In this document: piece by piece, positions 6,099 to 6,386 of the stretch
Layout: every line of letters starts with the position of its first letter
Numbering within the stretch: the first letter of the stretch is position 1
Virus record (IMG/VR): IMGVR_UViG_2740892233_000004
Source: a virus
Lineage: Duplodnaviria > Heunggongvirae > Uroviricota > Caudoviricetes
Direction: 5' to 3' (one strand)
DNA: 15,490 nucleotides
Program-made: the position numbers and the translations under genes
Notes under the pieces: model-generated
What the model saw: only the letters and a program-made list of their open reading frames with translations
Database searches by the model: none
What the model was told of the DNA's origin: nothing

Positions 6099-6188
6099 CC
6101 CGAGCGGGGGGGTATCATCCGGCGTAAAAAACGATCGCTCCGGACACCGCGCCCCCTCTCACGCAGAGAAAAAATTCCCGTTTCAGGG

Positions 6189-6312
6189 CAGTTAACATGT
6201 TAACTGGCTGTCCGGGCATTTTTGCGGTTTTTATCTTTATTATTCAGTTTGTTGTGCGGAAAAAATGTTAACTGGCTTTTTCAGCAAATGTTAACCAGGC
6301 AGCAGTTAACAT
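6189..6312. repeat. Cluster of GTTAAC-containing repeats, including an 18-bp perfect palindrome; candidate cos / terminase-binding region
   Basis: CAGTTAACATGTTAACTG 6189-6206; further ATGTTAAC copies at 6265-6272 and 6288-6295; GTTAACAT at 6305-6312; all in the HNH-to-terminase intergenic region. Confidence 0.45.
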
Positions 6313-6386
6313 TTGCGGCATGAGACGCCGGGAAAAATGGGCTGAACCATACCCGGCTGAGTGCGTTCTGGACCCGGGAGGAGGCT

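Follow-up and report, generated by a model that had tools for sequence, protein, structure and literature searches.

The 15,490-bp stretch of viral DNA analyzed here (IMG/VR record IMGVR_UViG_2740892233_000004, called the window throughout) contains a 288-bp intergenic interval at 6099-6386 that was evaluated as a cohesive end site (cos), the place where virion DNA is cut. Upstream of the interval on the plus strand is a gene for a gp74-like packaging accessory protein with an HNH endonuclease domain (5733-6098; Pfam HNH PF01844, E=7.5e-7). The gene closes the right end of the virion chromosome and is annotated as an HNH endonuclease or DNase in about 90 Shiga toxin (Stx) phage records. Downstream, also on the plus strand, are terS for the small terminase (6387-6950; Terminase_2, Pfam PF03592, E=1.7e-8), which uses a GTG start behind GGGAGGAGG, and the 5' part of terL with the ATPase domain (6947-8210; Pfam TerL_ATPase), which is interrupted by a gap of ten Ns at 8211. 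An earlier note made from the sequence alone had named an HNH endonuclease and a small terminase as the neighbors of the interval, and both Pfam matches agree with it. The order HNH, cos, terS, terL in the window was the same in about 90 phage records. Window 5700-7000 was 95-98% identical to about 90 phage records, including BP-4795, 2851, 1717, YYZ-2008 and many Stx1a, Stx2a and Stx2c converting phages, and 6099-6386 alone reached up to 99% identity. The 288-bp region was present in 1278 of 5426 complete E. coli genomes with at most seven copies per genome and roughly 3000 in total, among them a 100% match in strain 2013C-3252, and it had no annotation in the nine listed E. coli hits that spanned the interval. 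Taken from sequence comparison, the interval very probably serves as cos for an E. coli prophage of the lambdoid, Stx-phage type that packages in the HK97 manner.

The cut was placed using two phages with mapped virion ends. Lys8385Vzw (MT225100) is an induced Stx1 phage roughly 98% identical to the window, and its HNH gene is at the extreme end of its record. The record ends in ...GGACACCGCCCCCCCT (longer, ...CTCCGGACACCGCCCCCCCT) and restarts with CTCACGCAGAG... (longer, CTCACGCAGAGAAAAAATTCCCGTTTCAGGGCAGTTAACATGTTAACTGG...), a break at the position equivalent to window 6157|6158. In its published description, PhageTerm assigned Lys8385Vzw to the cos phages whose cohesive ends are 3', and cos was given as CGCCCCCCCT at the genome end (PMC7946995). 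Lys8385Vzw is the same as window 6158-6386 except for rare substitutions, and its overhang differs by one base from that of the window, CGCGCCCCCT, which was the commonest overhang variant among close relatives. The second phage, Acinetobacter phage fEg-Aba01, encodes TerS and HNH proteins that are distant homologues of the window proteins. A 10-nt 3' cohesive end, CGCCCCCCAT, is annotated in its record with GGACACC just before it, and the left end of the phage begins with CGCACGCACAAAAAAAATTCCC, clearly the same element as window 6158-6179. According to the fEg-Aba01 report, these ends were determined with PhageTerm and confirmed by heat and cool re-annealing of end fragments on a gel (PMC7354433). 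Because the ends of Lys8385Vzw and fEg-Aba01 fall at the homologous position, we placed the nicks at 6157|6158 (top strand) and 6147|6148 (bottom strand). The predicted nicking site (cosN, 6148-6157, plus strand) would give a 10-nt 3' cohesive end of sequence CGCGCCCCCT. The virion DNA end thus probably maps within the interval with the C-rich tract at 6148-6157 as its overhang, and by homology with both phages the ends are defined, cohesive, 10 nt long and 3'-protruding. The earlier note had proposed an HK97-style cos region with the physical end of the virion DNA, and the homology to the ends of these two phages bears this out. The cos position for this phage group is already published. In the passages of PMC7946995 and PMC7354433 found by term search only the overhang is described, and the repeats, the G-run and the TerS pairing discussed below were not found there.

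To compare the surroundings of the nick, 14 cos regions were aligned, from E. coli, Salmonella FSL SP-016, Atlantibacter, Erwinia, Serratia, Entomohabitans, three E. coli satellite-like islands, Acinetobacter, Burkholderia and HK97. The G/C-rich tracts reported earlier just downstream of the HNH gene were recovered as a G-tract, GCGGGGGGG, at 6104-6112 and a C-tract, CGCCCCCTC, at 6150-6158. The G-run proper (seven Gs, 6106-6112, plus strand, -52 to -46) is conserved among cos sites and finishes 45 nt upstream of the top-strand nick. In 11 of the 14 aligned sites five or more consecutive Gs stopped at precisely this distance, which was otherwise 44 nt in Lys8385Vzw, 44 nt in one satellite, 43 nt in Burkholderia and 42 nt in HK97. 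No function was assigned to the G-run in the literature searched. A G-run was also seen at homologous places in relatives L004, L007, L008-L025, L115, L118 and L119. The second element, a GGACACC box (6142-6148, plus strand), abuts and overlaps the overhang and was invariant in 59/59 close haplotypes. It was also present in the enterobacterial relatives, the satellites and fEg-Aba01, followed by the C-run. The third element is the left-end block CTCACGCAGAGAAAAAATTCCC (6158-6179, plus strand, +1 to +22), which contains an A-tract, was nearly identical across genera and has the conserved form CTCAYGCASAGAAAAAATTCCC right after the nick across the aligned cos regions. HK97 TerS binds an A-tract-containing site at +15 to +29 (PMC11331095), and for this reason the +1 to +22 block could be an additional terminase contact in its own right. 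We infer roles in cos for both the G-run and the A-tract block. The G-run is bracketed by an 11-nt perfect inverted repeat, GGTGTCCGGAG/CTCCGGACACC at 6053-6063/6138-6148, whose right arm abuts the overhang. This was set aside as probably due to chance, as the outer part of the right arm was polymorphic in close relatives and the left arm was absent in distant ones.

Between cosN and terS the interval contains a cluster of short repeats. The 8-bp motif ATGTTAAC was found five times in the window, at 6191-6198 (minus strand), 6197-6204 (plus), 6265-6272 (plus), 6288-6295 (plus) and 6305-6312 (minus), all inside 6191-6312 (122 bp, +34 to +155 from the nick). This compares to 0.24 copies expected, and none of 200 shuffles reached five. 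The GTTAAC core alone was found 11 times in the window as compared to 2.1 expected, with five of these in the interval. The proximal repeat, R1 (6189-6206, +32 to +49, centered at +40/+41), is a palindrome of two inverted ATGTTAAC half-sites and is the candidate primary TerS docking site. Its sequence, CAGTTAACATGTTAACTG, is a perfect 18-bp palindrome that ends there, with G at both 6188 and 6207. A T-rich spacer containing T runs (6207-6261), conserved in length and diverging in sequence, leads to three distal copies that span +105 to +159. These are R2 (AAAATGTTAACTGG, 6262-6275, plus strand, core 6265-6272 invariant), R3 (GCAAATGTTAAC, 6284-6295, plus strand, invariant) and R4 (GTTAACATTTGC, 6305-6316, with ATGTTAAC on the minus strand and its core 6305-6312 invariant). 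R3 and R4 are the left and right arms of a 12-nt inverted repeat (GCAAATGTTAAC/GTTAACATTTGC at 6284-6295/6305-6316), and a second pair of longer arms, AAATGTTAACTG/CAGTTAACATTT, was found at 6263-6274/6303-6314. The 18-bp palindrome and the three further copies within about 120 bp that had been reported before can be read directly in the sequence. The same repeats had been suggested as terminase binding sites, as the cleavage site, or as both. Cleavage at the palindrome was rejected, as the mapped ends of the relatives lie 32 bp upstream in the C-tract, and the binding part of the suggestion gained support from the comparisons described below.

We also searched the interval for other kinds of signal. 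No match to the integration host factor (IHF) consensus, WATCAANNNNTTR, was found in 6099-6386 even with one mismatch allowed, and an IHF site in the T-rich spacer was rejected on this basis. Promoter prediction returned one weak minus-strand match made of the repeats themselves, and terminator prediction returned nothing in the interval; both results were at shuffle level. No Rfam family matched at E<=1.

Conservation of the repeats, one of the checks proposed in the earlier note, was measured in 59 close haplotypes. None of the 38 motif positions varied as compared to 69 of the 250 other intergenic positions (Fisher p=1.3e-5), and R1 was invariant over 6191-6204. A more diverged E. coli variant (L122), with a TerS 69% identical, contained six GTTAAC cores as compared to 0.38 expected. 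The start-to-start gaps between GTTAAC cores were 8, 68, 23 and 15 in the window and 8, 68, 24, 10 and 15 in L122, and the spacer sequence of L122 had diverged. In L122 the flanks of the palindrome changed symmetrically from CAG..CTG to TGG..CCA, which kept the 18-bp palindrome, and the R2 flank was altered in step with the R1 flank. Likewise, in a second variant (L123) both R3/R4 arms were altered alike, to ATGTTTAC and GTAAACAT. Counted from the nick, every group had the start of its first GTTA motif between +33 and +36.

More compact relatives, with TerS proteins 36-49% identical to that of the window, start terS about 40 bp past the nick. In these phages a quasi-palindrome, GTAAAC-ATG-TTAAC (GTAAACATGTTAAC), is centered on the start codon, and it is exactly as far from the nick as the perfect palindrome of the window, GTTAACATGTTAAC. 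The codons ATG TTA ACA were invariant in 16 of 17 compact relatives, while six of the eight codons that follow varied synonymously. The one exception (L025) carries the element in the opposite orientation, GTTAACGTGTTTAC. Together, the invariant cores, the frozen codons, the retention of cores and spacing in L122 and the symmetric flank changes argue that the GTTAAC motif is functional DNA. Window 6177-6204 (cccgtttcagggcagttaacATGTTAAC) aligned with the stretch of the compact relatives that holds the Shine-Dalgarno and the terS start (cccgtttggagggtgtaaacATGTTAAC), which suggests that terS ancestrally started at the ATG at 6197 in the center of R1. Between this ATG and the present GTG start, the E. 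coli Stx-phage lineage has about 190 bp with three further motif copies.

This history is also the basis of a different explanation, in which an insertion or duplication of about 190 bp displaced terS and the extra copies are functionless leftovers of the rearrangement. The alignment of 6177-6204 with its ancestral ATG and decayed Shine-Dalgarno would fit such an event, as would the finding that one element suffices in functional relatives. However, the motif cores were invariant in 59 haplotypes in which neighboring positions varied, L122 retained the cores and the spacing despite the divergence of its spacers, and 6262-6335 had no significant similarity to the 5' end of terS outside the 8-mer. 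In this last comparison, which addressed the distal cluster as a copy of the terS 5' end, the local alignment score was 16, a score reached by 56 of 500 shuffles, and a copy of the terS 5' end was rejected. We consider the leftover explanation very unlikely. A 24-codon open reading frame at 6197-6271 (MLTGCPGIFAVFIFIIQFVVRKKC) begins at the presumed ancestral terS ATG in the palindrome and stops at the TAA of the next repeat, and its length was kept in L122. It is probably no gene, as hand comparison of its codons with L122 gave about 13 amino acid changes to one synonymous change and its Shine-Dalgarno has decayed; it is probably a by-product of a T-rich spacer framed by two motifs.

We then considered TerS as the protein that reads the repeats. 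Residues 1-55 of the window TerS are an SF6 G1P-like helix-turn-helix (HTH) DNA-binding domain of four helices, modeled by AlphaFold2 with a pLDDT (predicted local distance difference test) of 92-96 over residues 1-50. The top Foldseek matches of this N-domain were 4zc3 and 2cmp, the DNA-binding domain of SF6 G1P (template modeling score 0.84, root mean square deviation 1.6 A), and a profile of TerS relatives matched PDB entries 4zc3, 3zqp and 2cmp with E=2e-4 to 8e-4. In the model, helix 3 (residues 33-41, ARVKGSQLA) is the candidate recognition helix. A scan of genome contigs with the single TerS protein gave no matches, and an alignment-based scan succeeded. Distant IMG/VR TerS matches (L129-L203) were mostly unrelated packaging systems that do not have this cos core and were uninformative.

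Among the relatives the repeat motif tracked the TerS N-domain and not the rest of the protein. The compact enterobacterial phages, with N-domain identities to the window of 39-40/55 and C-domain identities of 22-28/68, have a GTTAAC-type repeat. E. coli integrase-bearing islands of about 8.5 kb, with N-domain identities of 26-34/55 and C-domain identities of 38-51/68, have a AAAAGTTACAC repeat. Changes in helix 3 showed the same trend. The window TerS has KGSQL and the satellite-island TerS has KGWQL or KGYQL; the ARCKGSQL variant (L123) pairs with the ATGTTTAC/GTAAACAT arms, the KGSRL variant (L122) pairs with changed repeat flanks, and in fEg-Aba01 ASAAGARL pairs with three direct AAGTTAAAG copies. 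A metagenomic phage with KGSQL has four direct GTTAACCC-like repeats. This covariation of motif and N-domain is an association.

The tracking of the N-domain bears on the possibility that the repeats bind some other protein, such as an IHF-like nucleoid protein, HNH, TerL or DUF3950, and that TerS reads only the A-tract block at +1 to +22. HK97 TerS does recognize an A-tract site near the nick, and nothing else downstream of the nick is as conserved as the +1 to +22 block, which itself differs in the satellites. Opposed to this, the motif changes with the TerS N-domain and not with other parts of the locus, the IHF search above was negative, and the islands L031/L204 have repeats of their own with no HNH or DUF3950 Pfam match among their called genes. 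In addition, this TerS has an SF6-type HTH unlike the DNA-binding substructure of HK97 TerS. Another protein as the reader of the repeats is therefore unlikely in our judgment.

The orientation of the repeats was informative for a third alternative, that they act as structures, either as hairpins in late mRNA that control terS translation or as DNA cruciforms. In its favor are the perfect palindrome of R1, the 12-nt inverted repeat of R3/R4 and the changes in L122 and L123, which are compensatory and preserve pairing. In the compact relatives the quasi-palindrome includes the terS ATG, and pairing of CCCTC with GAGGG could mask the Shine-Dalgarno. However, symmetric changes are equally expected of a symmetric protein site, the window palindrome lies 190 nt from the terS start, and the interval had no Rfam match and no terminator-like site. 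Moreover, the repeats at the same position are direct in the satellites, fEg-Aba01 and L128, where no hairpin is possible. As the repeats are direct in some groups and inverted in others, a motif read by a protein fits better than a hairpin, and we regard a structural role as quite improbable.

Taking these data together, we favor as the likely explanation an HK97-style cos in which the GTTAAC repeats are docking sites for the TerS HTH, equivalent to a cosB. In the proposed mechanism TerS, TerL and the HNH protein would act together to make the 10-nt 3' cohesive ends. TerL and HNH would nick in the C-tract at 6148-6157, within the core of G-run, GGACACC box and A-tract block. The GTTAAC repeats, between cosN and terS, would lie just inside the left end, the end packaged first, where the N-terminal HTH domains of a TerS oligomer would dock on them. 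Bound TerS would position TerL and HNH on cosN, giving packaging specificity and marking the end that enters first. The anatomy and statistics of the repeats and the homology of the locus to mapped ends are observations, and the feature is real, correctly placed in the interval and of an ordinary kind. Comparative evidence, namely invariance, the fixed distance to the nick and covariation with the N-domain, suggests that TerS binds the repeats.

Several points weigh against this explanation. Binding of TerS to the repeats is argued from comparison, and TerS may instead bind only or mainly to the A-tract block at +1 to +22, as happens in HK97. The covariation comes from about nine lineages that are phylogenetically non-independent, and several of the motif variants (GTTAAC, GTTACAC, GTTAAAG) are alike. 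The Fisher test above takes alignment columns and haplotypes as independent. FSL SP-016 and similar functional relatives have one quasi-palindrome only, so the three distal copies are in principle dispensable. Finally, the ends were mapped in relatives and their position in this prophage is given by homology, and the PhageTerm calls may be one base off.

We compared the region to well described packaging sites. HK97 (Kala et al. 2014; Chechik et al. 2024, PMC11331095) shares with the window the order HNH, cos, terS, terL, a 3' overhang of 10 nt, a G-run that precedes the nick by about 42-45 nt, an A-tract shortly after it, a TerS site just inside the left end and the TerL Pfam classes. In contrast, the substructure with which HK97 TerS recognizes DNA forms when the DNA exits the ring tunnel, and the window encodes a Terminase_2 protein with an SF6-type HTH, so that it does not have a small terminase of the tunnel-exit-recognizing type. 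HK97 also has one 15-bp site at +15 to +29 as compared to five 8-bp copies at +34 to +155 here, and its right end is ...CCGCCGCCAAA as compared to the window overhang CGCGCCCCCT. The region is thus HK97-like in its ends and its HNH protein, and its recognition module is different. Lambda cosB, with repeats R1-R3 bound by gpNu1 and a bend made by IHF, is similar in having several short repeats between cosN and the small terminase gene at the first-packaged end, and in both systems an N-terminal HTH is proposed to read the repeats and set packaging specificity. Unlike lambda, the window TerS has no Nu1 homology, the overhang is 3' and 10 nt instead of 5' and 12 nt, there is no IHF consensus, and the repeats are of mixed orientation and include a perfect palindrome. 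The pacL/pacR sites of SPP1/SF6 G1P share the Pfam Terminase_2 family, the DNA-binding fold and short repeated boxes near the cleavage site. SPP1 and SF6 package by the headful (pac) mechanism and have no HNH partner, whereas defined cohesive ends are found here, in both close and distant relatives with this TerS. The published cos of Lys8385Vzw and of fEg-Aba01 has the same core as the window. The region is a full member of none of the HK97 cos, lambda cosB and SPP1 pac types because its TerS is of the SF6 type, it has no IHF site and it is a cos and not a headful site. The repeats, the fixed G-run spacing and the pairing of repeat and HTH were not found in the literature searched, a limited collection that gives no proof of novelty, and the repeat and TerS pairing is a new example of an already known type of feature. 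Literature on LLS (a lambdoid phage), SfI and Serratia phages concerned other cos types and was set aside.

The apparent TerS swap of the E. coli satellite islands was the most interesting by-product of the comparison. These islands (L031/L032/L204 in GCA_012987925.1, L113/L114, L120/L121 and L124-L127) are small, integrase-bearing, about 8.5 kb long and located near ccm/narP, and they carry int, an AAA_25 or D5_N replication protein gene, cos, terS and a capsid-like gene. They keep the G-run, GGACACC box and C-run of the Stx-type phages, the cosN core. After the nick they have two to at least four copies of AAAAGTTACAC, GTTACAC repeats that start at +33 to +35, in place of the phage ATGTTAAC. 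The island TerS is a mosaic of a phage-like C-domain and a divergent HTH domain. From their gene content and cos sequences the islands look like satellites that may divert the TerL and HNH of a helper via their own TerS. This resembles the satellite TerS of Staphylococcus aureus pathogenicity islands (SaPI TerS-S), which redirects helper packaging, in that the E. coli islands carry their own TerS and an adjacent cos-like site. They appear to differ from SaPI in that the island TerS is a mosaic and a helper-type cosN is kept with the adjacent repeats changed. The Rpp of E. coli phage-inducible chromosomal islands (PMC6739421) is a contrast case to the islands' own TerS.

Phages and islands can be joined in one broader reading, which we put forward tentatively as somewhat short of an even chance. 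Specificity in HK97-style cos phages would be set by the pairing of TerS helix 3 (..KGSQL, KGWQL, KGYQL, CKGSQL, AAGARL) with a GTTA repeat at about +33, and satellites would exploit this pairing. By keeping the helper cosN and a helper-like TerS C-domain a satellite could use the helper TerL and HNH, and with a private HTH and GTTACAC repeats it could divert them to its own packaging. If true, small terminases would have a natural specificity code, and Gram-negative cos satellites a TerS-swap mechanism of piracy. The natural pairs of TerS helix variants and repeat variants are a ready-made design for determining how HTH-type small terminases read DNA. Knowledge of the true end (6157|6158) and of the repeats that are probably recognized could allow prophage and phage records to be oriented and annotated correctly, and could make it possible to predict which helper mobilizes which satellites or defective prophages.

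On the same basis it could be judged which of the many enterohemorrhagic E. coli prophages are still packageable, an example being the PPompW prophages, which lost HNH and the G-run flank to an insertion sequence. In PPompW (L003 2046-3504, PPompW_132418, LC567822.1) the IS110-family element ISEc20 terminates inside the cos G-run, at about window 6108/6109. It replaces everything upstream, including the lysis genes, DUF3950 and HNH, and cosN, the repeats and terS-terL are intact. PPompW-type prophages therefore do not have their own HNH or part of cos.

The window is a scaffold of short contigs with sixteen joins of ten Ns, at 174-183, 249-258, 524-533, 795-804, 1614-1623, 2761-2770, 4187-4196, 8211-8220, 8866-8875, 9296-9305, 10109-10118, 10490-10499, 10742-10751, 11155-11164, 11978-11987 and 13815-13824. 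The interval at 6099-6386 lies inside the N-free piece 4197-8210. The scaffold pieces overlap each other in phage 2851 coordinates and are therefore derived from several similar lambdoid prophages. The split and duplicated terL (6947-8230, 8181-8777 and 9034-10401) and the duplicated head genes are assembly artefacts. A broken terL pseudogene as the mark of a dead prophage was dismissed for this reason, and as the break is an artefact of the N-joined pieces it is uninformative on whether the prophage is alive.

Annotation of the region in public records was inconsistent. The terS of Lys8385Vzw (L005 185-793) was given a CTG start 45 nt upstream, the HNH gene was variously labeled "DNase", "restriction endonuclease", "putative secreted protein" and "homing endonuclease", and a "putative Dnase" coding sequence was annotated across the cos repeats in two records. 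Directly upstream of HNH is a gene for a small DUF3950 protein (5506-5751, minus strand) that overlaps the HNH start by 19 bp, and its position was conserved in relatives L027-L029.

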